This document shows positions 2,995 to 48,230 of a DNA stretch of 64,000 nucleotides, piece after piece; the first letter of the stretch is position 1, and every line of letters starts with the position of its first letter. The position numbers were made by a program, and so were the translations under genes. The DNA comes from Thermoanaerobaculia bacterium (GTDB lineage: Bacteria; Acidobacteriota; Thermoanaerobaculia; UBA5066; Gp7-AA6): positions 6,363 through 70,362 of the forward strand of contig DASWCZ010000079.1 in assembly GCA_036395755.1 (NCBI GenBank). The letters are read 5' to 3'. The notes under the pieces were generated by a model. It was not told the origin of the DNA, made no database searches, and saw only the letters and a program-made list of their open reading frames with translations.

Positions 2995-4188
2995 TCAGAT
3001 CCGCCGCGACCAGGCGAGGAGATCCACCGCGAGCGTACCGGCCATCCGTCCCCGCGCGGAGTCGTTCTTCAGAAGATCTTCGCGGGGGCCCGCGAGGACC
3101 GCTTCCCGGACGAGCCACGTTTCGCCGTCGTGCACGTCAACGCGCAACGAAAACGATCCCACGCGGCCGTCGCCGTAACGCCGCTCGACTTCGAGGGTCC
3201 GTCGGTCGGGATCGGGCCTGACGTCTTCCTCGAAGCCCGCCTCCGCCATCCCCGGAGGCGAGAGCCGGAAGTGCCAGCCCTCCCCCGTCACGTCGGAGAC
3301 GCTCTCCATCAGCCGCCGGTACCCCTCCGGGCTCGCAACCGCCCGGAACGCTTCCTCCGGACCGGCGTCGACCGAGAGATACGCCGCGATGCGCGCGTCG
3401 GCGATCTCGGGGGCCGGGTCACCCGCGATCGAGAACGCGCGGCGCAAAACTCCCTCTTCGATGCCGAAGAGCTCCGCGAGCTTGCCAGGGCGGTCGTCGG
3501 AAATCGGGATTCGCGTCCGCGTGTGCCGGTCGTCCACCCGCACCTCGCCGCGCGAGAACGTCGCGACCCGCGCGGCGTGGCGTCGTTGGAGCGAGACGTT
3601 TCGAAGGAACTTCGAGTCCGGCCGGAACGTGCGCCGCCAGTGGTCGAAGAACTCTTCCTCCGAGACGGGATCGCGGAAGACTTCCAGGTGGCGCGGCCCG
3701 TCGGGAATGCCCGAGGAGAACCGGACGAGCGTCCCCCGCTCGCTTTCAGCGGCCGACAGACCGAGGACTTCCGTCTCGACCTCGCCCCCGCAGGCCGGCA
3801 CGAGCGCCGGCAGCGGAAACCCGACGTCGGCGATCCACTCCTTCGCCCCGATCGAGATGAGGAGCGCGGCGTGGTCGAAGTCCTTCTCGACCCGTCCGAG
3901 CGCCTTCCGCGTCGCGAAATCGAGCTCGCGGGCGAGCGCGTCGAACGCGGCGACGCGAGCGTAGCAGGTCCCGCCGGTTCCTCTTTCGAGGAAGTCGCGC
4001 CAGAAAACGTCGGGAGTTCGGGGCCCGGCCGCCGGATCCGCGACGTCCGCGTTCCGAAGGATCTTCGAGGCGGTCTCGAACGGCACGCGCGCGAGGAACC
4101 GGCGGAAGAGCGTTTCCAGGAACTCGGTGGACGGCGGTTGCCCGGAGAGCTCGAGCGCGTCGAGCACGTCCTCGAGCGGGAGACTCAC
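2995..4188 (-). CDS. Arylamine N-acetyltransferase (NAT)-family protein with a ~120 aa C-terminal extension
   Basis: RGTGGTCYARVAAF (catalytic Cys region) and HAALLISIGAKEWIADVGFP resemble NAT motifs. GTG start overlaps the upstream stop (GTGA). Confidence 0.45.
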   Translation of the reverse strand: MSLPLEDVLDALELSGQPPSTEFLETLFRRFLARVPFETASKILRNADVADPAAGPRTPDVFWRDFLERGTGGTCYARVAAFDALARELDFATRKALGRVEKDFDHAALLISIGAKEWIADVGFPLPALVPACGGEVETEVLGLSAAESERGTLVRFSSGIPDGPRHLEVFRDPVSEEEFFDHWRRTFRPDSKFLRNVSLQRRHAARVATFSRGEVRVDDRHTRTRIPISDDRPGKLAELFGIEEGVLRRAFSIAGDPAPEIADARIAAYLSVDAGPEEAFRAVASPEGYRRLMESVSDVTGEGWHFRLSPPGMAEAGFEEDVRPDPDRRTLEVERRYGDGRVGSFSLRVDVHDGETWLVREAVLAGPREDLLKNDSARGRMAGTLAVDLLAWSRRI

Positions 4189-19199: not shown

Positions 19200-20825
19200 G
19201 TGGAAAAGCGTCTCCTTCTCGCCGCGCTCCTGTCTCTCGGCATCCTGTTGCTCTGGGAGTGGATCGGTCCGCGTCCACCCCGGCGCGCGACGCTCCCCGT
19301 CGTCCCGACGAAGGGAGCTCTCGTCGTTTCGACGCCGGTGGCCGCCCGGGCGCCGGAGCCCGTCCCGGAAGGCGTGCGGATCGCGGGCACGCAGGAAGGC
19401 CTGACGACCGTCGAGAACGACGTCGCGCGAGCAACCTTCTCCAACCGGGGCGCGGTGCTGACGTCCTTCGTTCTCAGAAAGCATACCGACGACCAGAAGC
19501 GGCCGCTCGAGCTCGTCCGCGCCATCGGCGATCCGTCCGCGAAGTCGCTCGCCCTCGTGTTTCCGGGAAAACCGGACTTGACGCAGCTCGCTTCGAACGC
19601 GCTGTACGCCGTCGAGACCGGTCCCGCCCACACCGTGCGTTTCCGATACGGCGACGAGCGGCTCACGGTGACGAAGGAGGTTCGCCTCGGCGACGGGTAT
19701 CTCTTCGACGTCCAGGTCTCCGTCGCGGGTCCGGAGTTCACGCTCATCGTCGGAACGGGCCTGCGCAACCCGACCGTGGGCGAGCGAGCGTCGCGCTACG
19801 TGATGCCGCCGACCGCGGTCGCGAGCACGGACAGCGGTCTCCAGCGCGTCTCGGCCCAGAAGCTGGAGAAAGAAACCGCGTGGCCGGTCCCTGCCAACGG
19901 CTTCGTCGGGATCGAGGACAACTATTTCCTGACGGCGCTCGTTCCGCGGCATCCCGCGGCCGCGCGGATCTCTCGCTTCGCCCTGCCGGCAGCGCCCGGC
20001 GATCCAGCGGCGAAGCCGGAACCGCTGGTGTCCGTGGGAGTGGCGTCCTCCGGGACCCTGGAGGCGCGCGCCTTTTTCGGACCGAAAGACGTCGCGATCC
20101 TCGAGAGCGCCGGGCTCGGGCTCGAGCGCACCGTGAATTTCGGGTGGTTCGGAATCCTCGCGAGACCGCTGCTCTGGCTCCTGAAGAAGGCGTACGCCTG
20201 GTCGGGGAACTTCGGGCTGGCGATCCTGCTCGTGACTCTGCTGGTCCGGATCCTCCTCTTCCCGCTGATGCACAAGAGCTACGCGTCGATGAAGAAAATG
20301 CAGAAGCTCGCGCCCAAGATGAACGCCATCCGCGACCGTTACAAGAAGGCGAAGACCGACGCGGCGCAGCGCGCGAAGATGAACCAGGAGTTGATGGCGC
20401 TCTACCAGGCCGAGGGATACAACCCGATGAGCGGCTGCTTCCCGGTGGTGCTGCAGCTGCCGATCCTCGTCGCGTTCTACAACGTGCTTTCCCGGGCCGT
20501 GGAGCTGCGGCACGCCCCGTTCATGCTCTGGATCCGCGATCTGTCGGCAGTCGACCACACCTACGTGCTCCTGATCCTCATGATCGTGACGATGTACATC
20601 CAGCAAGCGATGACGCCTTCGACCGTCGACCCGATGCAGAAGAAGATCTTCATGGCCATGCCGCTCTTGTGGGGCTTCATGCTGAAGGACATGCCGTCCG
20701 GTCTCGTCCTCTACTGGCTGTTCTCGAACGTTTTGACGATCCTCCAGCAGATGCTGATCAACCGAATGGGCCGGGACGAACCGCAGGCGGGCAAGCCCGC
20801 GCGCGTCAAGATGGCGCGGGCGTAG
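19200..20825 (+). CDS. yidC: Membrane protein insertase YidC
   Basis: N-terminal TM segment, periplasmic domain, conserved C-terminal 5-TM core (FPLMHKSYASMKKMQKLAPKM...). Confidence 0.9.
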   Translation: MEKRLLLAALLSLGILLLWEWIGPRPPRRATLPVVPTKGALVVSTPVAARAPEPVPEGVRIAGTQEGLTTVENDVARATFSNRGAVLTSFVLRKHTDDQKRPLELVRAIGDPSAKSLALVFPGKPDLTQLASNALYAVETGPAHTVRFRYGDERLTVTKEVRLGDGYLFDVQVSVAGPEFTLIVGTGLRNPTVGERASRYVMPPTAVASTDSGLQRVSAQKLEKETAWPVPANGFVGIEDNYFLTALVPRHPAAARISRFALPAAPGDPAAKPEPLVSVGVASSGTLEARAFFGPKDVAILESAGLGLERTVNFGWFGILARPLLWLLKKAYAWSGNFGLAILLVTLLVRILLFPLMHKSYASMKKMQKLAPKMNAIRDRYKKAKTDAAQRAKMNQELMALYQAEGYNPMSGCFPVVLQLPILVAFYNVLSRAVELRHAPFMLWIRDLSAVDHTYVLLILMIVTMYIQQAMTPSTVDPMQKKIFMAMPLLWGFMLKDMPSGLVLYWLFSNVLTILQQMLINRMGRDEPQAGKPARVKMARA

Positions 20826-36364: not shown

Positions 36365-38098
36365 TCAGAAGACCGATGCCATCGAAACGGCGGGCACGAA
36401 GCCGGACGGTGACGGTCGGCTCCAACCCGGTCCGCGAAGCGCTCGGCCCGGCGTCCTGCCGGTCAGCTTTCCTCCGTCCACGACGAGCACGCCGTTGACG
36501 GCGACGAAGCGGAACCCTTCGCTGTAGCGGTTCGGGGCCTCGAACGTCGCGACGTCGCTGACCGTCCGGGGATCGAAGACCGCCAGGTCCGCGGGGAAGC
36601 CCTCCTTGACGAGACCGCGGTCGGAGAGCCCCGCGGCCTCCGCCGCAAACGACGTCATCTTCCGGATGGCCTCTTCCAGCCGCAGAATTTTCTCGTCGCG
36701 GACGTAGTGCCCGAGGATCCGCGCCGCCGAGCCCCAGCCCCGCGGGTGCGATCCCTCGTGCGAGAAAGGCCCGTCGGTCGCCTTCGCGGGCGAGTCGGTT
36801 CCGAAGGAGACGAGCGGGTGGGCGAGAGCGGCCCGGACGTCCTTCTCGTCCATGATCGAGATGATGCAGGACACGTTGGCGCGATCAGCGAGGACGAGGT
36901 CGATGAGCGCGTCGCGCGGGTCTTTTTTTTCTTCGTCGGCGATTTTCGCGATCGTCTTGCCTTCGTAAGCCTTGAGCTTGTCGGAGAGGACCGATCCGAC
37001 CATGACGCCTTCCGGACCGCCGGAGCCCAGGTACTGGTTCTCCCAGTCGGTCGTGTCGCGCGCCATGTCCTCGCGGGCGCGCTCGCGCGTCGCCGGGTCG
37101 GAGAGGCGTTTCAGGAGGGCCTCGCGTCCGCCCTCGCGGACCCAGGGGGGGAGGCAGGCGTCCAGGCCGTTGGACGCGCGGTTGTACGGGTACTGGTTCG
37201 CACTGACGTCGAGACCCTCCGTGCGCGCCGCCTCGATCTTCTTCAAGACCTCGGGCATCCGCCCCCAGTTCGGCTTGTAGGCGGTTTTCAGATGCCAGAT
37301 CTGTGTTCGCACCTTCGCGTTGCGCGCGATCGAGAAGACCTCCTCGAGCGAGGAGTCGATGCGAGAAGACTCCGACCGCTGGTGCGTGAAATAGGCGCCG
37401 CCGTGGCGCGCGGCGACTTTCGAGAGCGCCGTGAGCTCCTCGGTCGTCGAGTAGATGTTGGGAATGTACTGGAGCGATGACGAGACGCCGAGCGCGCCCT
37501 CGCGCATCGCCTGTTCCAGCAGCGACTGCATCGAGGCGATCTCGGTCGACGTCGCCGCGCGCCTCTCTTTGCCGATGACGTAACTCCGAAGCCCTCCGGA
37601 ACCGATGAACGTTCCGAGGTTGATCGCGGTGCCGCGCCTCTCCAGCGTCTTGAAGTAGCCGTCCAGGGTCCGCCAGTCCGGCCACACGCCGTATTTCTTG
37701 TAGGTGTCACGCTCCTCGTCGATCAGCCCCTGGTTGAGCGGCGCGATCGACACGCCTTCGCCCGTCACTTCGGTCGTGATCCCCTGCGTCACTTTCGACG
37801 CGGCCCGTCCGTCGACGAGGACGTTGTACTCGGACTGTCCCAGGAGATCGATGAACCCGGGCGCGACGATAAGACCGCGCGCGTCGATCCGCCGTTTCGC
37901 CGGGCGCTTCCCGAGCGGTCCGATCGCGACGATCCGACCGTCGCGGACCGCTACGTCCGCGACGAACCAGGGCGCGCCGGTTCCGTCCACGACGCGGCCA
38001 CCCTCGAAGACGAGGTCGTCGATCGCCGGAGCGCGCGGTGCGAAAAGCGCGATGGACGGCAAAGCCAGGAGGGCTCCGACCGCGATGAGCTTCTTCAT
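36365..38098 (-). CDS. Secreted amidohydrolase of the D-aminoacylase / N-acyl-D-amino-acid deacylase family
   Basis: Signal peptide MKKLIAVGALLALPSIALFA; GGRVVDGTGAPWF..DVAVRDGRIVAIG..IDARGLIVAPGFID. Confidence 0.7.
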   Translation of the reverse strand: MKKLIAVGALLALPSIALFAPRAPAIDDLVFEGGRVVDGTGAPWFVADVAVRDGRIVAIGPLGKRPAKRRIDARGLIVAPGFIDLLGQSEYNVLVDGRAASKVTQGITTEVTGEGVSIAPLNQGLIDEERDTYKKYGVWPDWRTLDGYFKTLERRGTAINLGTFIGSGGLRSYVIGKERRAATSTEIASMQSLLEQAMREGALGVSSSLQYIPNIYSTTEELTALSKVAARHGGAYFTHQRSESSRIDSSLEEVFSIARNAKVRTQIWHLKTAYKPNWGRMPEVLKKIEAARTEGLDVSANQYPYNRASNGLDACLPPWVREGGREALLKRLSDPATRERAREDMARDTTDWENQYLGSGGPEGVMVGSVLSDKLKAYEGKTIAKIADEEKKDPRDALIDLVLADRANVSCIISIMDEKDVRAALAHPLVSFGTDSPAKATDGPFSHEGSHPRGWGSAARILGHYVRDEKILRLEEAIRKMTSFAAEAAGLSDRGLVKEGFPADLAVFDPRTVSDVATFEAPNRYSEGFRFVAVNGVLVVDGGKLTGRTPGRALRGPGWSRPSPSGFVPAVSMASVF

Positions 38099-38123
38099 GG
38101 CTTCAAGTCTATGATCGCCGCCG

Positions 38124-39191
38124 ATGCAGTCCGACGCGGTTTCGCCAGGCGCCGGCGCGCGGGCGGTGGACCTCCTCGAGCGGCTGGTCGAGATCCCGTC
38201 GGTGACCGGCGCCGAGAAGCCGCTGCTCTCGTTTCTGGAAGAGCGTTACCGGGGATCGGGCTGGACCGTCGAGTCCATGGAGGTCGGTCCCGACCGGCGC
38301 AACCTCTTCATCCACCGCGGGCACCCGAGCGTCGTCCTGACGACGCACGCGGACACGGTGCCTCCGTTCTTTCCGCCGCGCCAGGAGGCGAATTCCTTGA
38401 TCGGCCGCGGAGCCTGCGACGCGAAGGCGAGCCTCGCCGCGCAGGCGATTGCCTTGGAAGAGCTGGCGCGGGACCGAGGGGGCGAGGTCGGGCTCCTCGT
38501 GCTCGTCGGAGAGGAGCGCGGTTCCGACGGCGCGCTCGCGGCCAACCGGCGCCCGCATCTCGCTCGATATTTGATCGGCGGCGAGCCGACCGGCAGCCGC
38601 TTCGTCACCGGTTCGAAAGGCTGCCTGCGGATCGAGGTCGAAGCGCGCGGCGTGTCGGGGCACTCGTCGATTCCGGAGAGCGGCCGCTCCGCGGTCGATC
38701 CGCTGCTCGACTTTCTGAACGACCTGCGCGAGCTGAAGCTGCCGGAGCATCCGGCGTTCGGGCGGACGACGATGAACATCGGCCTGATCCAGGCCGGCAC
38801 CGCGCCGAACGTCATCGCGGAGAGCGCGCGCGCCGAAGTCATTTTCCGCACGGGACAGCCGATCGAGATGCTGCTCGCGCACATCCGCCCGATGGCGCAG
38901 GGCCGGGTCGGGCTCGCCGTCGGCTACCGCTCGGATCCCGTTTCGTTCCGTCGCCCGAAGGGGGAGCCGGGTGACGTCGTCTCCTTCGCCTGCGACCTGC
39001 CGCTCCTGCCGGCGTGGGGCGAGCCAATCCTCTTCGGGCCCGGCTCGATCCGCGACGCGCACGGTGCGGAGGAAAAAGTGGAGCTCGCGGAGGTCGAGGC
39101 GGCGGTCGCGGTCTACGCCCGGCTCGTGCGGGGCCTTCTGGCGCGCGGCGACGCGTGCCTGGAACCCCGGAACACCGGGACCGTCCGATAG
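38124..39191 (+). CDS. M20-family metallopeptidase (ArgE/DapE/CPG2-like)
   Basis: LLERLVEIPSVTGAEKP, HADTV, GACDAKAS, GEERGSDG motifs. Confidence 0.75.
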   Translation: MQSDAVSPGAGARAVDLLERLVEIPSVTGAEKPLLSFLEERYRGSGWTVESMEVGPDRRNLFIHRGHPSVVLTTHADTVPPFFPPRQEANSLIGRGACDAKASLAAQAIALEELARDRGGEVGLLVLVGEERGSDGALAANRRPHLARYLIGGEPTGSRFVTGSKGCLRIEVEARGVSGHSSIPESGRSAVDPLLDFLNDLRELKLPEHPAFGRTTMNIGLIQAGTAPNVIAESARAEVIFRTGQPIEMLLAHIRPMAQGRVGLAVGYRSDPVSFRRPKGEPGDVVSFACDLPLLPAWGEPILFGPGSIRDAHGAEEKVELAEVEAAVAVYARLVRGLLARGDACLEPRNTGTVR

Positions 39192-39202
39192 CGGGAAATA
39201 GA

Positions 39203-40591
39203 ATGCCCGCGGTGAAGGTGCGTTTCGCGCTCGTCCCTCTGATGACCCTGTCCCTGCTCGTGCCGGGGCGCGCGGCCGGCCAGGAGGAGAAAAAGCTCGC
39301 GGTTCCCTACACCGAGTTCACCCTCCCGAACGGCCTCGACGTGATCCTCCACGAGGACCACAAGGTTCCGCTCGTCGCGGTCAGCGCCTGGTACCACGTC
39401 GGCTCCGCGCGCGAGAAGCCGGGTCGAACCGGGTTCGCCCACCTCTTCGAGCACATCATGTTCGAAGGGTCGGGGCACGTGGCCGAAGGGAATTTCGACA
39501 ACTGGCTCGAGTCCGCCGGCGGCGACAACAACGGCTCGACGGACAACGACCGGACGAACTACTGGGAAACGGTCCCCTCCAACGCGCTCGAGCTGGCGCT
39601 CTTCCTCGAGTCCGACCGGATGGGCTACCTGCTCGATTCGTTGAATCTCGAGAAAGTCAACGTGCAACGCGACGTGGTCAAGAACGAGCGCCGGCAGTCG
39701 TATGAGAACCGTCCATACGGAATGGCGTTCCTGAAGCTGCCCGAAGAGCTCTTCCCTCCCAACCACCCGTACCACTGGCCGGTGATCGGCTCGATGGAAG
39801 ACCTGACCGCGGCGAGCTACGAGGACGTGGTCCAGTTCTTCAAGAGCTGGTACCGGCCGAACAACACGAGCCTCGTCGTCGCGGGGGACATCGATCCCGC
39901 CGACGCGCGGCGGAAGGTCGAAAAGTGGTTCTCCGACGTTCCCCGGGGGGCGGCCGTGCCGCCGATCGCCGCGCCGCCCGCGGTCCTGACTTCGGAGAAG
40001 CGGCTGACGCTCGAGGACCGGGTCCAGCTGCCGCGTCTGTATCTCGCGTGGCTCTCCCCCCAGCTCTTCGCGCCCGGCGACGAAGCGATGAACGTCCTTT
40101 CACGCGTGCTCGCGTCCGGCAAGAACTCCCGGCTCTACAAGAGGCTCGTCTACGACCTCCAGATCGCCCAGGACGTGTCGGCGAGCCAGAACTCCGGTCC
40201 TCTCGGTTCCTCTTTCCTTCTGATCGTCACGGCCCGCGAAGGCCACGGTCTCTCCGAGATCGAGAAAGTGGTCTCCGAGGAGCTCGCGAGAGTGAAGCGG
40301 GACCCGCCTACGCCCCGCGAGCTCGAACGCGCCGTCAACCAGATCGAGGCCGCGTTCTACGGCGGGATGGAGCGCGTGGGCGGATTCGGAGGGGTTGCGG
40401 ATCAGCTGAACGCGTACGAGTTTTACGCGGGCCGGCCGGATTACTTCGCGGAGGATCTCGCGCGTTACACGTCTCTCGACACCCAGGACATCCAGGCGGC
40501 CGCAAACCGCTATCTGCGGGACGACGCGCGCCTCGTCCTCTCGGTCGTGCCGCAGGGGAAGAAGACCCTGGCCGCGGAAAAGAAGCCATGA
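39203..40591 (+). CDS. Secreted M16-family zinc peptidase (pitrilysin-like, active subunit with HxxEH)
   Basis: Signal peptide; GFAHLFEHIMFEGS inverted zincin motif. Confidence 0.8.
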   Translation: MPAVKVRFALVPLMTLSLLVPGRAAGQEEKKLAVPYTEFTLPNGLDVILHEDHKVPLVAVSAWYHVGSAREKPGRTGFAHLFEHIMFEGSGHVAEGNFDNWLESAGGDNNGSTDNDRTNYWETVPSNALELALFLESDRMGYLLDSLNLEKVNVQRDVVKNERRQSYENRPYGMAFLKLPEELFPPNHPYHWPVIGSMEDLTAASYEDVVQFFKSWYRPNNTSLVVAGDIDPADARRKVEKWFSDVPRGAAVPPIAAPPAVLTSEKRLTLEDRVQLPRLYLAWLSPQLFAPGDEAMNVLSRVLASGKNSRLYKRLVYDLQIAQDVSASQNSGPLGSSFLLIVTAREGHGLSEIEKVVSEELARVKRDPPTPRELERAVNQIEAAFYGGMERVGGFGGVADQLNAYEFYAGRPDYFAEDLARYTSLDTQDIQAAANRYLRDDARLVLSVVPQGKKTLAAEKKP

Positions 40592-42048
40592 GACGGGCGG
40601 ACGTCCCCGTCGCATTGCTCCTCCTCATTCTCGCCCTGCCCGCGTCCGGGCAGACTCCGTCGCCCGGAAAGCCCGATCGTTCGAAACCACCGGCGCTCGG
40701 ACCCGTTCGGCCGTTGAAGCTTCCGCCCGTCCAGGAGCTCCATCTTTCGAACGGCGTGCCCGTGTTCTTAATCGAGCGGCACGAGGTGCCGGTCGTGCAG
40801 GTCGACACGGTCGTCCGCGCGGGGGCGGGAAACGACCCGCTCGAGAAGCCCGGCCTCGCGAGCCTGACCGCCGACATGCTGGATGAAGGCGCCGCAGGCA
40901 AAAGCGCGCTCGAGATCTCCGACGAAGTCGACTACCTCGGCGCGGACCTGGCGTCGGAGGCGGGCTGGGACGCGACCGTCGTCGCACTCCAGGTTCCGGT
41001 CAAGCGCGTCGAGAAGGCTCTTCCGATCCTCGCCGACGTGGTGGTACATCCGACGTTCCCCGCAGGCGAGATCGAACGCGTGCGGACGGACCGCCTGACC
41101 GAGCTCCTCCAGTGGCGCGACGAGCCGCGGGCCATCGCGTCCGTCGCGTTCGCCCGCGCCCTGTACGGCCGCAAGCACCGCTATGGAACTGCGACCCTCG
41201 GGACCGAATCTTCGGTGCGCGGGTTCTCGCGCGCGGACCTAGCCGCTTTCCATTCGCAGGCCTTCCGGCCGGACAACGCCGCGATCGTCGTCGTGGGCGA
41301 CGTGACCGCCGCTTCGATCCAGCCCCGGCTCGAGAAGGCTTTCGGCGGCTGGAAATCCGCCGGCAACCGGGCCGCGGCCGAGGTCCCGGCGGCGCCGCAG
41401 ATTCCCGGGCGGGAGATCTGGATCATCGACCGGCCCGGATCGGCGCAATCCGAGATCCGCATCGGACGGATCGGGCCGCCGCGCTCGACGCCCGACTACT
41501 TTGCTCTGACGGTCATGAACACGATTCTCGGCGGCTCCTTCACTTCCCGGCTGATGCAGAACCTGCGCGAGCAGCACGGCTACGCGTATGGGGCGCGATC
41601 ATCGTTCGACTACCGTCTGTCGACCGGGCCGTTCGTGGCCGCGGCCGCCGTCCAGACCGACAAGACCGCTCCGGCGGTGACCGAGTTCTTCAAGGAGCTC
41701 GATGCGATTCGTAAGACGATCACGGACGCCGAGGTCGCGAAAGCGAAAAACTACGTTGCCCTGTCGTTCCCGTCCGAGGTGGAGACGACGGGCGACCTCG
41801 CTTCCCGGCTCGCGCAGCAGTTCATCTACCGCCTGCCCAACGACTGGCTCGAGACGTACGTCGCTCGGATCGCCGCCGTCACCGTCGCGGACGTGCGTCG
41901 CGTGGCGAGCCAGTACCTGGATCCAGAGAAGGTCGCGGTCGTCGTGGTCGGAGACCGGAGCAAGATCGAAGGGGAATTGAAAACGCTGAACCTGGGTCCG
42001 GTGAAGACGCTGTCGGTCGACGAGCTCTTCGCGGCCGAGAAGAAGTAG
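40588..42048 (+). CDS. Secreted M16-family peptidase partner subunit (no HxxEH)
   Basis: Signal peptide MRRADVPVALLLLILALPASG; M16 fold without the zinc motif; ATGA overlap with the upstream gene. Confidence 0.75.
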   Translation: MRRADVPVALLLLILALPASGQTPSPGKPDRSKPPALGPVRPLKLPPVQELHLSNGVPVFLIERHEVPVVQVDTVVRAGAGNDPLEKPGLASLTADMLDEGAAGKSALEISDEVDYLGADLASEAGWDATVVALQVPVKRVEKALPILADVVVHPTFPAGEIERVRTDRLTELLQWRDEPRAIASVAFARALYGRKHRYGTATLGTESSVRGFSRADLAAFHSQAFRPDNAAIVVVGDVTAASIQPRLEKAFGGWKSAGNRAAAEVPAAPQIPGREIWIIDRPGSAQSEIRIGRIGPPRSTPDYFALTVMNTILGGSFTSRLMQNLREQHGYAYGARSSFDYRLSTGPFVAAAAVQTDKTAPAVTEFFKELDAIRKTITDAEVAKAKNYVALSFPSEVETTGDLASRLAQQFIYRLPNDWLETYVARIAAVTVADVRRVASQYLDPEKVAVVVVGDRSKIEGELKTLNLGPVKTLSVDELFAAEKK

Positions 42049-42057
42049 CTTCGGCCG

Positions 42058-42723
42058 ATGGCGAAACCGATCGTCCGGAAACTGCTTCTTGGCGTTCTCG
42101 CCGTCATTGTCCTTCTCGTCGCCGCCTTCGTCTGGAGAATCGGGCCGAGAAACGTCTTCGGGATGCTCCGGTACGACCAGCGCCGCGAAGGGAACCTCGC
42201 GGTCGGCCATGCCGCTCCCGACGTCTCGCTCTATTCGCTCGACGGCCGAACCCGCGTGCGACTCGCGGACGAGATCGGCGTGAAGCCTCTGGTGATCATT
42301 TTCGGCAGCTACACCTGACCGCCGTTCCGGCGCTCGGTCGAGCGCGTCCAAAAAGCGTACCGGCAGTATCGGGACCGCGCCCGTTTTCTGACCGTCTACA
42401 TCAAGGAGGCGCACCCGGAAGACGAGTGGCAGATGGATTCGAACGAGAAGGAGAGCGTCTGTTACCCGCAGCCGCGCACGCTCTCGCAGCGGGTCGCGAT
42501 CGCCAACGACTTCGTGAAGCGCTTCCACTACGAAATCCCGATTGCCGTCGACGACATGGACAATCGGGCGAATCAGCTCTATGCCGGCTGGCCGGAGCGC
42601 TTCTACATCGTCGACGAGAGCGGAAAGATCGTCTTCAAGGGCAAGCCCGGACCGTTCGGGTACCACCCCGAAGAGGTGGAGTCGTGGCTCGCAAAGAGAT
42701 TTCCTCCTCCGACCGGTAGCTGA
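42058..42723 (+). CDS. Selenocysteine-containing iodothyronine-deiodinase-like (thioredoxin-fold) protein, membrane-anchored by an N-terminal TM helix; Sec encoded by in-frame TGA 42316-42318
   Basis: Track ORFs 42058..42318 and 42433..42723 are in the same frame. The joined sequence reads VIIFGSYT-U-PPFRRSVERVQKAYRQYRDRARFLTVYIKEAHPEDEW, matching the deiodinase active-site motif FGS(C/A)TUPPF and the downstream YI(D/E)EAHxxDGW region. Confidence 0.65.
42330..42345 (+). promoter_or_regulatory. SECIS-like hairpin GCGCUC-GGUC-GAGCGC; the GGUC apical loop begins 17 nt after the UGA (E. coli fdhF: 18 nt, same GGUC loop)
   Basis: Read directly; a smaller hairpin CGCCG-UUC-CGGCG sits immediately 5' of it. 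Confidence 0.5.
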
Positions 42724-42809
42724 TCGAATCGGCGACCGACGAACCGCGCTGCACAACTCACTGTGCATTCGCGAGGGCAACACCAGATTTTAGACAGCAA
42801 TTCGATGAG

Positions 42810-43220
42810 GTGGTTCCGCGTGAGGCGGGTTGCGTTACCTCCCAGCGCACTGATGTCACACTCAGGATGGAGGAGAAGATGGCAGGTCATACCGTTGTCT
42901 CGATCCGGGCGGATGGATATGGCTTTGGCATCGGTCTCATATTCTTCGGCTGTGAGTGTCTCGTTCTGGGGTATCTGATTCGGAGATCGGGCTATCTGCC
43001 CGGGGTTCTCGGCGTTCTGATGCAAGTCGCGGGCTTGTGCTACCTGACGAATAGCTTCGCGCTGCTTCTGGCCCCGAACTTCGCAAGCCGGATATTCCCC
43101 GCGATTCTCCTTCCTGCCTTTGCCGCGGAGCTGTCGCTCTGCCTTTGGCTTCTCGTGAAGGGCGTGGACGTGCCGAAGTGGGAAGAGCGAGCAAACGCGG
43201 GACGGGTTAGCGGAGGCTAG
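42810..43220 (+). pseudogene. C-terminal fragment of a DUF4386-type membrane protein in a lower-GC patch; the N-terminal half is missing
   Basis: GLIFFGCECLVLGYLIRRSGYLPGVLGVLMQVAGLCYL...ELSLCLWLLVKGV corresponds to the C-terminal half of the family. Confidence 0.4.
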
Positions 43221-43234
43221 GCTCGGGGTTCGCG

Positions 43235-44131
43235 ATGCGTGCCCCTCTGCCGGTCCTTCTCAATCGCTCTTCCGGGAGCCCGGCGGATCGCGACGCGGTC
43301 GACCGGGTCCGGGCGGCTTTCCGTTCGGCGGGCGCGGAGGCGGACGTCCAGCTCGCGCCGAGCGGCAAAGACGTCATCGCCCTCGCCCGACGCGCGGCGT
43401 CTGGCGGTAGCGACGTCGTCGTCGCCGGAGGAGGCGACGGCACCGTCAGCTCCGTCGCTTCCGTCCTCGCGGGAAGCGAGAAGACGCTCGGCATTCTCCC
43501 GCTCGGTACGCTCAACCACTTCGCGAAGGACCTTAGGATTCCCATGGACTTCGAAGAGGCGGCGAGAAACGTTGTCGAAGGCCGCATCGCTCTGGTCGAC
43601 GTCGGAGAGGTCAACGGGAACGTCTTCGTGAACAACTCCAGCCTCGGCCTCTATCCGCGCATCGTTCGGCATCGGGAGGAGCTCCAGCAGCGGCTCGGAC
43701 AGGGGAAATGGCCGGCGTTCGCCTGGGCGACCCTTCACGCACTTCACCGGCATGCGTCCAGCCTCGAGCTCACTCTTTCCATCGACGGCCGCGAGATCCG
43801 CCGGCGCACTCCTTTCGTGTTCGTCGGCAATAATTTTTACGAGATGGAGGGTTTCAAGATCGGGAAACGCGACCGGCTCGACTTAGGAGAGCTTTCCGTC
43901 TATCTTGCTCCCGACGCGCGCCCTTTCGACTTGATCTTCCTGGCCATTCGCGCTTTCTTCGGACGACTGCGCGCCGCCGGCGACTTCGAAGCGCTGCGAA
44001 CCAGGGAGCTTCGAATCGAGACGCGGACCGGCCGGTTTCAGGTCGCGACCGACGGCGAGATCTCCATGCTGGACACGCCGCTCCTCTACCGCGTGCGGCC
44101 GCAGGACCTTCGCGTCGTCGTGCCGCGATGA
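43235..44131 (+). CDS. Diacylglycerol/lipid kinase catalytic-domain protein (YegS/BmrU-like)
   Basis: VVAGGGDGTVSSVASVL, GILPLGTLNHFA. Confidence 0.7.
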   Translation: MRAPLPVLLNRSSGSPADRDAVDRVRAAFRSAGAEADVQLAPSGKDVIALARRAASGGSDVVVAGGGDGTVSSVASVLAGSEKTLGILPLGTLNHFAKDLRIPMDFEEAARNVVEGRIALVDVGEVNGNVFVNNSSLGLYPRIVRHREELQQRLGQGKWPAFAWATLHALHRHASSLELTLSIDGREIRRRTPFVFVGNNFYEMEGFKIGKRDRLDLGELSVYLAPDARPFDLIFLAIRAFFGRLRAAGDFEALRTRELRIETRTGRFQVATDGEISMLDTPLLYRVRPQDLRVVVPR

Positions 44132-45028: not shown

Positions 45029-45784
45029 ATGTCCGAAGCTCGCGGCGTTGCCGCTCGGAGCCGTTTCGGGGAAACACTGCGCCGCGACGTCTGGTGGGTG
45101 GAGATCCTGCCGGTCGTCGCGTTGCTCGGCCTCTTCGCGATCTACGCCACAGCGCGCGCGTTCGAGGGGCGTTGGTTCGAGTGGGGGCCGTATATCTCCC
45201 CCTTCTACTCGCCCTTGATCGACCGCAATCACCACTGGTGGCCTTTCTCACCGGCGCTCTTGATCCTCGGCGGCCCTCTCGGATTCCGGGCGACGTGTTA
45301 CTACTACCGCAAGGCGTATTACCGGGCGTTCTTCCTCGATCCACCGGCCTGCGCGGTCGGCGAGGCGCGCCGCGGCTACCGGGGCGAGACCGCCTTTCCG
45401 TTCGTGTTGCAGAACCTCCACCGCTTTTTCCTCTATCTCGCGATCCTCTTCCTCGGGTTTCTCTGGTACGACGCGATCCGGTCGTTCCGCTTCGACGGCC
45501 GGTTCGGCGTCGGGGTCGGATCGCTCGTGCTGACGGCGAACGTCGTCCTCCTGACGCTGTACACGTTTTCCTGTCACTCGCTGCGGCACCTCGCGGGCGG
45601 GCAGGTCGACTGCTTCTCCTGTTCGGCGTCGGGCCGCGCGCGTCACCGCTTCTGGGGCTGGGCGAGCGCGCTCAACGAACGCCACATGCTGTTCGCCTGG
45701 ATGAGCCTGGTCGCCGTCGGTCTCGCCGACCTCTACGTGCGCGCGCTCGCGTGCGGCGCGATCCACGATCTGCGGCTGCTCTGA
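45029..45784 (+). CDS. sdhC: Succinate dehydrogenase/fumarate reductase cytochrome b membrane subunit (single large subunit type)
   Basis: ~5 TM helices with conserved His; directly precedes sdhA and sdhB. Confidence 0.7.
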   Translation: MSEARGVAARSRFGETLRRDVWWVEILPVVALLGLFAIYATARAFEGRWFEWGPYISPFYSPLIDRNHHWWPFSPALLILGGPLGFRATCYYYRKAYYRAFFLDPPACAVGEARRGYRGETAFPFVLQNLHRFFLYLAILFLGFLWYDAIRSFRFDGRFGVGVGSLVLTANVVLLTLYTFSCHSLRHLAGGQVDCFSCSASGRARHRFWGWASALNERHMLFAWMSLVAVGLADLYVRALACGAIHDLRLL

Positions 45785-47499
45785 TGAGCCTCCCTTACGA
45801 GATTCACGAGCACGACGTCCTCGTCGTGGGCGCCGGAGGGGCGGGCCTGCGGGCCGCCATCGAAGCGCTCGCGCACGGGGCGAGCGTCGGAGTCGTCTGC
45901 AAGTCTCTGCTCGGCAAGGCGCACACGGTCATGGCGGAAGGGGGCATCGCCGCCGCGATGGCGAACGTCGATCGGGGCGACGACTGGCGCACCCATTTCC
46001 GCGACACGATGCGCGGCGGCAAGTACCTGAACAACTGGCGGATGGCGCAGATCCACGCGCAGGAGGCGCCGGACCGGGTGAGGGAGCTCGAGCAATGGGG
46101 CGCTCTCTTCGATCGCACGGCCGAGGGCGACATCCTCCAGCGGGCGTTCGGTGGTCATACGTTCAAGCGGCTGTGTCACGTCGGCGACCGCACGGGACTC
46201 GAGATGATCCGCACTCTTCAGGACCGGGGAGTCCAGATGGGCTTTCACGTCTACATGGAGTGCGCAGTGACGAGGCTGCTCACGGACGGCAAACGGGTCT
46301 GCGGCGCGGTCGGATACTGGCGCGAGCAGGGGCGTTTCGTCGTGTTCCGGGCGAAGTCTGTCGTGCTCGCCACCGGAGGGATCGGCAAGGCCTGGAAAAT
46401 CACGTCGAACTCCTGGGAGTACACCGGCGACGGGATAGCGCTCGCCTACGACGCCGGCGCGGAGTTGCTCGACATGGAGTTCGTCCAGTTCCACCCGACC
46501 GGAATGGTCTGGCCGCCGGGCGTGCAGGGCCTTCTCGTCACCGAGGCCGTCCGCGGCGAAGGAGGCGTGCTCCGCAATCGCCTGGGCGAGCGGTTCATGG
46601 AGCGCTACGACCCGGAGAAGCTGGATCTCTCGACCCGCGACGTCGTCGCCCGGGCGATCTACACGGAGGTGCGGGAGGGGCGCGGAACGGAGCACGGCGG
46701 CGCGTTCCTCGACATTTCCCAGAAGCCGGCGGAGTACGTGAAGCGCAAGCTCCCGAGCATGTACCACCAGTTCTTAGAGCTCGCCGACGTCGACATCACG
46801 AAAGGGCCGATGGAGGTCGGACCCACCTGCCATTACATGATGGGCGGCGTGCGCGTGGACGCGGAAACGGCGGAGACGACCGTGCCCGGCCTGTACGCGG
46901 CGGGGGAGGTCGCGGCCGGACTCCACGGAGCGAACCGGCTGGGGGGAAACTCCCTCTCCGACCTGCTGGTCTTCGGGCGGCGCGCCGGGCTCGCGGCCGC
47001 CGAGCGGGCCGACCGGGCTCCGTCGGGCTCTTCGGACGACGGACAGATCGAGGAGGCCACGAGGGAGATGCTCGCTTTCTTCGAGCGGCCGGAGGGGGAG
47101 AGCCCGTACGCCGTCCACCGGGACTTGACCGAGACGATGCAGAGCCTCGTCGGGATTTTCCGCAATGAAAAGGACCTCGAGGACGGCCTCGCGAAGATCC
47201 GGGAGCTCCAGGATCGCGCCGGTCGCGTCCGAGTCGAAGGCTCGAGGCTGTTCAACCCCGGGTGGCACCTTGCGCGAGATCTGAAGGCGATGCTGACGGT
47301 CTCCGAGGCGGTCGCGCGGAGCGCTCTTCTCCGCAGGGAGAGTCGCGGCGCGCACAGCCGGACGGATTTTGCGAAGAGCGATCCGGAGTGGGGGAAGAGG
47401 AACATCGTCGTCTCGCGTCGGGGCGGCGCGATGGAGCTGTCGGAGCGATCGGTCCCCGAGGCGCCGCCGGACTTGAAGGCGCTCATGGAGTCACAATGA
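45784..47499 (+). CDS. sdhA: Succinate dehydrogenase/fumarate reductase flavoprotein subunit
   Basis: HDVLVVGAGGAGLRAA FAD motif, HTVMAEGG, RLGGNSL. Confidence 0.9.
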   Translation: MSLPYEIHEHDVLVVGAGGAGLRAAIEALAHGASVGVVCKSLLGKAHTVMAEGGIAAAMANVDRGDDWRTHFRDTMRGGKYLNNWRMAQIHAQEAPDRVRELEQWGALFDRTAEGDILQRAFGGHTFKRLCHVGDRTGLEMIRTLQDRGVQMGFHVYMECAVTRLLTDGKRVCGAVGYWREQGRFVVFRAKSVVLATGGIGKAWKITSNSWEYTGDGIALAYDAGAELLDMEFVQFHPTGMVWPPGVQGLLVTEAVRGEGGVLRNRLGERFMERYDPEKLDLSTRDVVARAIYTEVREGRGTEHGGAFLDISQKPAEYVKRKLPSMYHQFLELADVDITKGPMEVGPTCHYMMGGVRVDAETAETTVPGLYAAGEVAAGLHGANRLGGNSLSDLLVFGRRAGLAAAERADRAPSGSSDDGQIEEATREMLAFFERPEGESPYAVHRDLTETMQSLVGIFRNEKDLEDGLAKIRELQDRAGRVRVEGSRLFNPGWHLARDLKAMLTVSEAVARSALLRRESRGAHSRTDFAKSDPEWGKRNIVVSRRGGAMELSERSVPEAPPDLKALMESQ

Positions 47500-48230
47500 A
47501 GGAAGCGACCCTTCACGTCTTCCGCGGAACGGCGGACGGCGGCGACCTCGTTGCGTACCGCGTGCCCGTCGCGCCGGGGATGGTCGTGCTCGACGCGCTC
47601 CATCACATCCAGGGTTATCTCGCGCCGGACCTCGCCGTGCGCTGGAACTGCAAGGCCGGCAAGTGCGGGTCGTGCTCGGCCGAGGTCAACGGCCGTCCAC
47701 GGCTGACGTGCAAAACGCGAATGGATTCCCTGCCGCTCGAACGCCCGGTGGTCGTGACTCCGATGAAGTCGTTTCCCGTCATCCGCGACCTGGTGACGGA
47801 CGTCTCCTGGAACTACGAGGTCAACCGGAAGATCCCGCCTTTTTCTCCGCGCCCCGGCACCGACTGGAAGATGTCGCAGGCCGACGTCGACCGGGTGCAG
47901 GAGTTCCGCAAGTGCATCGAGTGCTTCCTCTGCCAGAACGTCTGTCACGTTCTGCGGGACCACGGAAAGAAGGCGGAGTTCGGCGGCCCCCGTTTCTTCG
48001 TCCGCGTCGCCGCCCTCGAGATGCACCCTCTCGACGGCGTATCGCGGACGAAGCTCCTGAAGGAGGAGCTCGGACTGGGCTACTGCAACATCACCAAGTG
48101 CTGTACCGAAGTCTGCCCGGAGGACATTCGCATCACGGACAACGCGATCATTCCCTTGAAGGAGCGCGTCGTCGACGACTTCTACGACCCGGTGGCGAAG
48201 CTCCTGCGCAAAGTCTTCGGTCGGAAATGA
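47496..48230 (+). CDS. sdhB: Succinate dehydrogenase/fumarate reductase iron-sulfur subunit
   Basis: CKAGKCGSC (2Fe-2S), CIECFLCQNVC and CNITKCCTEVCP cysteine clusters. Confidence 0.85.
   Translation: MKEATLHVFRGTADGGDLVAYRVPVAPGMVVLDALHHIQGYLAPDLAVRWNCKAGKCGSCSAEVNGRPRLTCKTRMDSLPLERPVVVTPMKSFPVIRDLVTDVSWNYEVNRKIPPFSPRPGTDWKMSQADVDRVQEFRKCIECFLCQNVCHVLRDHGKKAEFGGPRFFVRVAALEMHPLDGVSRTKLLKEELGLGYCNITKCCTEVCPEDIRITDNAIIPLKERVVDDFYDPVAKLLRKVFGRK

Follow-up and report, generated by a model that had tools for sequence, protein, structure and literature searches.

The iodothyronine deiodinases of vertebrates (Dio1-3), represented in our comparisons by mouse Dio2 (9h48) and mouse Dio3 (4tr3), combine a thioredoxin fold bearing a deiodinase-specific insertion with a single N-terminal hydrophobic helix, and carry a UGA-encoded selenocysteine (Sec) within the active-site motif FGSxTUPPF. 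They also have the Tyr, Glu, His and Trp residues of a YIxEAHPxDxW motif, together with WPER/FER and GPF motifs, and their Sec insertion sequence (SECIS) is a kink-turn element of the 3′ untranslated region. Bacterial relatives are on record as well. Sec- and Cys-containing deiodinase homologues with a bacterial SECIS were described in Sargasso Sea metagenomes by Zhang, Fomenko and Gladyshev in 2005 (PMC1088965), a deiodinase-like family was counted in the Global Ocean Sampling (GOS) survey in 2008 (PMC2398784), and a ‘deiodinase-like protein, PF00837’ with UxxC as its representative motif is listed in prokaryotic selenoproteome reviews of 2022 and 2026. For the recoding signal, the pertinent comparison is the SECIS of Escherichia coli fdhF, which encodes formate dehydrogenase H and has its UGA at codon 140 (NC_000913.3).

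Here we analyze a deiodinase-like gene on a 64,000-nucleotide stretch of a Thermoanaerobaculia (Acidobacteriota) genome (assembly GCA_036395755.1, contig DASWCZ010000079.1; hereafter the window). An initial annotation, made from the letters alone, had proposed a membrane-anchored, deiodinase-like selenoprotein with an in-frame UGA followed by a hairpin, and we conclude with high confidence that the locus encodes a SECIS-dependent, Sec-containing protein of the deiodinase family. Like the marine family of 2005, it belongs to PF00837, has an in-frame UGA at the catalytic position, has Cys homologues, and places a hairpin with a G in its small loop just 3′ of the UGA. In contrast to those marine metagenome reads, the present sequences are complete genes with genome context from a soil clade of Thermoanaerobaculia, and whereas the bacterial representative in the reviews is UxxC, the site here matches that of animals, UPPF, and lacks a Cys partner. 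The locus adds to a listed bacterial selenoprotein family a clade of soil Acidobacteriota whose site is UPPF, and opens no new category. The remark in the initial annotation that such proteins are rare in bacteria was overstated: the family was published in 2005, and members of the clade occur in 75 or more species-level genomes. The advance lies in the definition of a large clade from soil whose genes are complete and whose SECIS, of the textbook bacterial type, resembles that of fdhF.

Reading frame and conservation across the TGA

From the ATG at 42058 to the TGA at 42721-42723 the gene forms a single frame of 222 codons, whose sole internal stop is the TGA at 42316-42318. As first annotated, the list of open reading frames (ORFs) splits the gene into 42058..42318 and 42433..42723, this TGA is the only interruption of an otherwise open frame, and the two parts join as VIIFGSYT, the TGA codon and PPFRRSVERVQKAYRQYRDRARFLTVYIKEAHPEDEW. 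Retranslation gave the same reading, with KPLVIIFGSYT immediately before the TGA and PPFRRSVERVQKAYRQYRDRARFLTVYIKEAHPEDEWQM immediately after it; as a small correction, the Sec position is residue 87, with 86 residues before it. The window has a G+C content of 66%, and the local coding signature holds on both sides of the TGA (GC1/GC2/GC3 ~0.7/0.4/0.8). On the opposite strand, an open frame of 394 codons (41599-42783, −) spans the entire selenoprotein gene, and a comparable antisense frame overlaps the gene at 62 related loci. High-GC DNA typically gives rise to shadow ORFs, and this frame looks like one of them and not like a gene. The features of the locus are collected in Table 1.

Table 1. 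Features of the deiodinase-like selenoprotein locus (window positions).
Feature	Position	Strand	Description
Deiodinase-like selenoprotein coding sequence, complete (very probable)	42058..42723	+	221 residues; Sec is residue 87; own stop TGA 42721-42723
N-terminal hydrophobic segment	42082..42135	+	LLLGVLAVIVLLVAAFVW, residues 9-26; putative membrane anchor or uncleaved signal
Active-site motif	42301..42330	+	F82-G-S-Y-T-U87-P-P-F-R91; aligns with FGSATCPPF (Dio2) and FGSCTCPPF (Dio3)
UGA read as Sec, codon 87 (very probable)	42316..42318	+	next base C (UGAC); TGA in 75/76 loci, TGT in L075
Putative bacterial SECIS hairpin	42330..42345	+	GCGCUC-GGUC-GAGCGC; stem 42330-42335/42340-42345, loop 42336-42339; 11 nt after UGA
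Deiodinase ‘loop-D edge’ motif	42397..42435	+	Y114-IKEAHPEDEWQ-M126; Tyr114, Glu117, His119, Trp124; kept in at least 90% of 73 sequences, with position 116 variable
Two M16 (insulinase-type) peptidase genes	39014..42048	+	Pfam; 10 nt between the end of the second and the selenoprotein gene

A homologue scan with one genome per species yielded 77 related loci, the closest of them 90-91% identical, mostly from metagenome-assembled genomes (MAGs) of Thermoanaerobaculia and other Acidobacteriota, with some Planctomycetota and Vicinamibacteria. The Sec site is covered by 76 loci (L074 ends before it), and in 75 of these a TGA stands at exactly the same codon, between FGS[YFC]T and PPFR; the remaining locus, L075 from a member of the Chromatiales, has TGT and hence Cys. 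The locus set leans towards relatives of the window protein, and because the peptide patterns used in the scan excluded the Sec codon, the count of 75 in 76 is not biased towards TGA. Cys also occupies the site in the full-length database homologues P0001 and P0003-P0006, so that the TGA aligns both with the Sec of Dio and with the Cys of bacterial homologues, which upholds its original assignment as the deiodinase Sec site. In two further full-length homologues, P0002 and P0008, Trp takes the place of Sec (FGSFT-W-PPFRR); we do not take it for a real variant, since it most likely stems from a gene caller having translated TGA under an alternative code. In the Vicinamibacteria-type loci L066, L067, L070 and L077 (~3160-3300 in each), the site reads FGSCT-U-PPF, identical to the mammalian Dio3 motif down to its Cys two positions ahead of Sec.

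Conservation beyond the TGA bears directly on the simplest alternative, in which the TGA is a true stop and the locus a pseudogene, a pair of small genes (86 aa and ~96-121 aa) or a sequencing error. In keeping with such a reading, automated ENA and JGI calls retain only a 96-aa C-terminal ORF, and most database homologues are ~122-aa fragments. However, the same TGA recurs in 75 independent assemblies, and the 38 codons between it and the first ATG are conserved as protein: in nine pairwise comparisons, substitutions in this stretch (codons +1 to +38) fell on codon positions 1:2:3 in the ratio 30:18:130, a third-position bias that indicates translation in the same frame. The same 38 codons hold the invariant family motif Y-I-x-E-A-H-P-x-D-E-W, and the Pfam and PDB alignments cross the TGA unbroken. 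The initial annotation had named orthologues that stop at the TGA as the observation that would overturn it; 75 of 76 loci instead continue as conserved in-frame protein. Because both the TGA and the frame downstream of it are conserved, we regard every form of this alternative, from a true stop or a pseudogene to a pair of genes or an error of sequencing, as effectively ruled out.

The hairpin 3′ of the TGA

By a published criterion (PMC1088965), a bacterial SECIS is a stem-loop that closely follows the UGA and has G in its small apical loop, a description that fits the hairpin at 42330-42345. Its stem starts 11 nt and its GGUC loop 17 nt past the UGA, in line with the spacing given in the initial annotation. 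The E. coli fdhF element likewise has a UGA-C context, an 11-nt spacer, a short G+C-rich stem and a GGUC loop; the annotated resemblance in loop and spacing is therefore sound, and the hairpin is, in addition, conserved and covarying. The two elements differ in that the 5′ arm of fdhF contains a bulged U (7 nt versus 6) and its lower stem extends a long way back to the UGA, whereas the conserved part here is the 6-bp upper stem only (7 bp in some relatives), and the host proteins are unrelated. The upper stem-loop 11 nt from the UGA is said to have been defined, by Liu et al. in 1998, as the minimal SelB-binding element in E. coli. By analogy with fdhF, the SECIS of this clade may well be recognized by E. 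coli SelB, in which case heterologous expression would become realistic, and with it biochemical work on a bacterial homologue of the deiodinases, the first of its kind.

Taken by itself, a hairpin at this spacing is unspecific. The + strand of the window holds 49 perfect hairpins with 6-bp stems and 4-nt loops, and two TGA triplets are followed by such a hairpin 11 nt on; the second (stem at 19944; 19930-19959, +) lies out of frame in the gene at 19200-20825, and this chance case satisfies the same combination of TGA and 11-nt spacing. A lone sequence therefore proves nothing about the hairpin, and its support is comparative. The hairpin is present in all main-clade loci, and its GGUC loop is invariant in 63/63 main-clade sequences. 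Stem positions in these sequences are paired in 95.8% of cases, versus 20-72% when the 3′ arm is slid. Double-sided changes occur in three of the six stem pairs (G-C to C-G or A-U; C-G to G-C or U-A; U-A to G-C), and the observed covariation score was reached by none of 500 shuffles. For the outermost pair, G/C (42 sequences) and C/G (6) stand against G/G (2) and C/C (4), with a Fisher p of 2e-4 that is uncorrected for phylogeny; its two bases are each the third position of an Arg codon, so that covariation here is synonymous throughout. The four-fold-degenerate third positions within the loop are likewise invariant (63/63), compared with an entropy of 0.9-1.7 bits at third positions outside the hairpin, and this freezing of degenerate sites indicates that the RNA is constrained beyond the needs of the protein. 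More distant clades (L065-L077) encode other amino acids here (FRKKIGDL, FRARLAE) and have other hairpins in the same place, again with G-rich loops: GAAGAUC-GGC-GAUCUUC, used by L066, L067, L070 and L077, and GCCA-GGU-UGGC.

These observations also weigh on the possibility that the UGA is read without Sec machinery, by an opal suppressor or ‘allo-tRNA’ or by a near-cognate Trp, Cys or Arg tRNA, such that residue 87 would not be Sec. Allo-tRNAs have been reported from Acidobacteria and may act as nonsense suppressors (PMC5389517), and the window itself yielded neither sel genes nor a tRNA-Sec. Yet a suppressor needs no hairpin, while here a G-rich-loop hairpin that copies the SelB-binding element of fdhF is kept at a fixed distance, covarying and with frozen synonymous sites, and the position recoded is that of the catalytic Sec or Cys of the family. 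Moreover, TGA terminates this gene and most of its neighbours, so that general UGA suppression would be costly. We consider suppression highly improbable and retain SECIS-directed Sec insertion as the explanation for the UGA.

Several results nevertheless count against SECIS-directed Sec insertion in a deiodinase-family protein. The fold stability of the 66 nt at 42310-42375 is no better than that of shuffled sequences (z = −0.12), and the minimum-free-energy fold omits the hairpin. The covariation statistics as a whole are, like the Fisher value above, uncorrected for phylogeny. Rfam gave no match at the gathering threshold across the window and has no matching model; a lncRNA match at E 0.15, from a sensitive Rfam scan of 42250-42450, was discarded as meaningless. 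As the initial annotation had stated, no selA, selB, selD or selC lies in the window: tblastn queries with SelA, SelB and SelD of E. coli matched nothing in the 64 kb or in the flanks of the 77 loci, and ARAGORN found no tRNA, and so no tRNA-Sec, in the window, and one tRNA-Ile and zero tRNA-Sec in the first 60 loci. A scan of the window for in-frame TGA codons, filtered by coding potential, returned the target gene as its only selenoprotein candidate, the three other in-frame-TGA candidates being antisense shadows of real genes, and no candidate with a redox context emerged from the flanks of the related loci. In favour of Sec decoding, on the other hand, selenoproteins have been reported from genomes of the phylum Acidobacteria (PMC1794560). 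No conserved neighbour or functional partner was found around the gene, other clades adjoining TonB_C, Zn-ADH, ROK, Nramp or kinase genes, and the literature searched contains no experimental characterization or assay of a bacterial deiodinase-family member.

Recoding itself is shown by the comparative data, and the route to it can be inferred. The hairpin, with its GGUC loop, would act as a bacterial SECIS, and SelB-GTP-Sec-tRNA(Sec) would bind the loop and, competing with RF2, bring Sec to the UGA. Without such hairpin-driven recoding, the product would end after 86 residues.

Family, fold and active site

The joined protein was compared with Pfam with Cys substituted at position 87. The family T4_deiodinase (PF00837) matched with an E value of 7.5e-39 and 133.9 bits (cutoff 27), in an alignment (residues 44-214 on profile positions 70-236 of 237) that runs uninterrupted across the TGA. 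The closest sequence matches in the PDB are the catalytic cores of mouse Dio2 (9h48, E 5.6e-25) and mouse Dio3 (4tr3, E 1.5e-24). The original family assignment is thus well supported, by the PF00837 score and by the Dio2 and Dio3 alignments (E~1e-25). The best NCBIfam match was NF038285 (‘deiodinase_rel’, a hypothetical equivalog of 347 positions), with an E value of 1.2e-59 and 202.5 bits. Its catalytic domain is matched over profile positions 177-340, whereas the first ~176 positions have no counterpart in the 221-residue protein; because the score falls under the 250-bit cutoff and only the C-terminal half of the profile is covered, we place the protein outside this equivalog.

For the fold we relied on an AlphaFold model of P0006, the closest genuine Cys-form homologue (57% identical), as a proxy for the window protein. 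The model, which is confident (pLDDT 86.2, pTM 0.81), has as its top structural matches in the PDB Dio2 (E 5.6e-13) and Dio3 (E 4.4e-12), with TM scores of 0.76-0.79, and suggests, for this proxy, a thioredoxin fold with a deiodinase-specific insertion whose closest solved structures are the deiodinases. A second tier of matches, at ~1e-8, comprises ResA/TlpA-like oxidoreductases and 1-Cys peroxiredoxins (Prx), several of them membrane-anchored. The N-terminal transmembrane helix that had been annotated reappears as a helix at residues 3-25 of the model, and a comparable ~19-residue hydrophobic segment (mean Kyte-Doolittle ~2.4) is present in 56 of 58 homologues, consistent with a predicted single N-terminal transmembrane anchor as in Dio. 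Lys and Arg residues flanking the segment average 3.0 on the N-terminal side and 2.8 on the C-terminal side, a charge balance that favours neither orientation. Behind the anchor lies a juxtamembrane motif, IGPRNVxGMLRYDQRxEG (42139-42192, residues 28-45), that is conserved across the clade and distinguishes it from Dio1-3. The motif is N-terminal to the alignment with the Dio2 and Dio3 cores, which starts at residue 50, and in the P0006 model it forms a short helix (27-35) of lower confidence, with a pLDDT of 66-72.

In the active site, both the FGS(C/A)TUPPF motif and the downstream EAH region predicted by the initial annotation were found and could be aligned to the Dio2 and Dio3 PDB sequences, which are Sec-to-Cys crystal constructs. 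Conservation was counted over 73 aligned sequences: G83, S84, T86, U87, P88, F90 and R91 are kept in 73/73, and F82 and P89 in 72/73. Conservation of at least 97% was also observed for Y114, E117, A118, H119, P120, D122, E123, W124, Q125, M126, N129, Q138 and P139, and for R145, A149, D165, W178, P179, E180, R181, Y183, G195, G198, P199 and L211; K194 is kept in 96%. The proton relay of Dio2 consists of Ser127, Thr129, Tyr157, Glu160, His162 and His182, with the His162/Trp167 pair as a loop-D element, and substrate is clamped by Arg275 in Dio3 and Lys241 in Dio2 (PMC11592359). Five of the six relay residues are kept here (S84, T86, Y114, E117 and H119), and W124 corresponds to Dio2 Trp167. The differences from Dio1-3 speak against a deiodinase-type mode of substrate binding: the place of Dio2 His182, the second His of the relay, is taken by an invariant Pro139, and the clamp position is Pro197, next to an unconserved Lys196. 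From sequence comparison, loss of the clamp is judged to bear on substrate specificity and leaves family membership untouched. Cys135 is unconserved, so that the family has neither a UxxC partner nor a resolving Cys matching those proposed for Dio, and no thyroid hormone is expected in the host. Overall, a relay that is mostly kept, combined with the absence of the clamp, the second His and the resolving Cys, narrows the types of substrate worth trying.

Catalysis would begin with activation of the Sec87 selenolate by the Ser84/Thr86/Tyr114/Glu117/His119 network, after which the selenolate would attack an electrophilic substrate atom to form a Se-X intermediate. With no second Cys conserved in the family, an external thiol would be needed to resolve Se-X and regenerate the selenolate. 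The readings diverge on the substrate. The selenoproteome literature assumes a redox enzyme, and on that view the locus is the same recoded selenoprotein acting as a Prx-like thiol peroxidase or a TlpA/ResA-like thiol-disulfide oxidoreductase, with no dehalogenase activity. Weak Pfam matches to Redoxin and AhpC-TSA, barely over their cutoffs, agree with this, as do the second-tier structural matches and the missing relay His and clamp; the 2005 study likewise proposed a redox function, thyroid hormones being unexpected in bacteria (PMC1088965). The TlpA/ResA oxidoreductases and 1-Cys Prx share with the present protein a thioredoxin fold behind an N-terminal anchor, and the 1-Cys Prx also a single nucleophilic chalcogen with no partner nearby. 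In contrast to the oxidoreductases, however, there is no CxxC or UxxC partner and no resolving Cys, and the matches to both groups are weaker than those to deiodinases by 4-5 orders of magnitude in structure and ~30 in sequence. Tyr114, Glu117, His119, Trp124, WPER and GPF, which lie outside the generic thioredoxin/Prx core, show at least 97% conservation over the 73 sequences. Furthermore, the ratio of Sec to Cys forms is unusually high: the GOS survey counted 22:21 for the deiodinase-like family, compared with 40:3,287 for glutathione peroxidases and 253:7,348 for Prx (PMC2398784), and such retention of Sec fits a reaction with a particular need for selenium. We therefore see an oxidoreductase function as a serious contender, but somewhat doubtful.

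Our own leaning, held tentatively and short of an even expectation, is towards reductive dehalogenation, which we favour over peroxide or disulfide reduction because the deiodinase-specific residues are kept and Sec is almost never exchanged for Cys (75/76 loci). The substrate would be a halogenated phenolic other than thyroid hormone, lacking the amino-acid carboxylate. A more specific proposal, which we regard as rather unlikely, is that members of the clade are true reductive dehalogenases that sit in the membrane, depend on selenium and use natural organo-iodine or organo-bromine phenolics of the soil as substrates. It is compatible with a retention of Sec that is nearly absolute, with conservation of the deiodinase-specific Tyr/Glu/His/Trp network and with a loss confined to the amino-acid-carboxylate clamp. 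Were it true, the clade would embody a prokaryotic precursor activity of thyroid-hormone deiodination and link selenium and iodine cycling in soil.

Public annotation and genomic neighbourhood

Of 1.84 billion cluster representatives searched exhaustively by HMMER with residues 88-221, 3,354 matched at E<=1e-3 and 1,136 still did so at E<=1e-10. Fragments beginning just after the Sec position make up at least 64 of the best 150 matches, as well as most hits of the protein homologue search, and such starts are the footprint of gene calls split at the TGA. Public calls for the family (for example L080 at 224-514 and L082 at 293-583; proteins P0007-P0120) are mostly C-terminal fragments of ~96-125 aa labelled T4_deiodinase, from which the N-terminal 86 codons and the active site have been lost. 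Metagenome protein catalogues therefore mis-annotate the family systematically. Supported by covariation and by 75 orthologues, the locus provides a clean example of a gene that callers split, truncate or give a Trp at the Sec position, which matters for the annotation of soil Acidobacteriota MAGs.

Given the 10-nt gap to the second M16 peptidase gene, the two M16 genes and the selenoprotein gene are probably co-transcribed. The M16-M16-deiodinase arrangement is found in only the ~10 closest relatives, which makes M16 peptidases no family-wide partner. Promoter-like sites were not found in 38000-43400, and terminator-like sites there are no commoner than in shuffled sequence. Downstream, the order is a short DUF4386 gene, a DAGK-like kinase gene, a metallophosphoesterase gene and SdhA/SdhB-like genes. 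The first of these (42879-43220, +; 113 aa in public calls), between the selenoprotein and DAGK-like genes, covers only the C-terminal half of DUF4386 (profile 117-210 of 210) and could be a truncated or split membrane-protein gene. About 2.4 kb downstream of the selenoprotein, genes for the flavoprotein and iron-sulfur subunits of a succinate dehydrogenase/fumarate reductase occupy 45094-48230 (+). In public calls, the flavoprotein gene is directly preceded by one for a 251-aa protein without a Pfam domain; in the window, this stretch lies within an 801-codon ORF.

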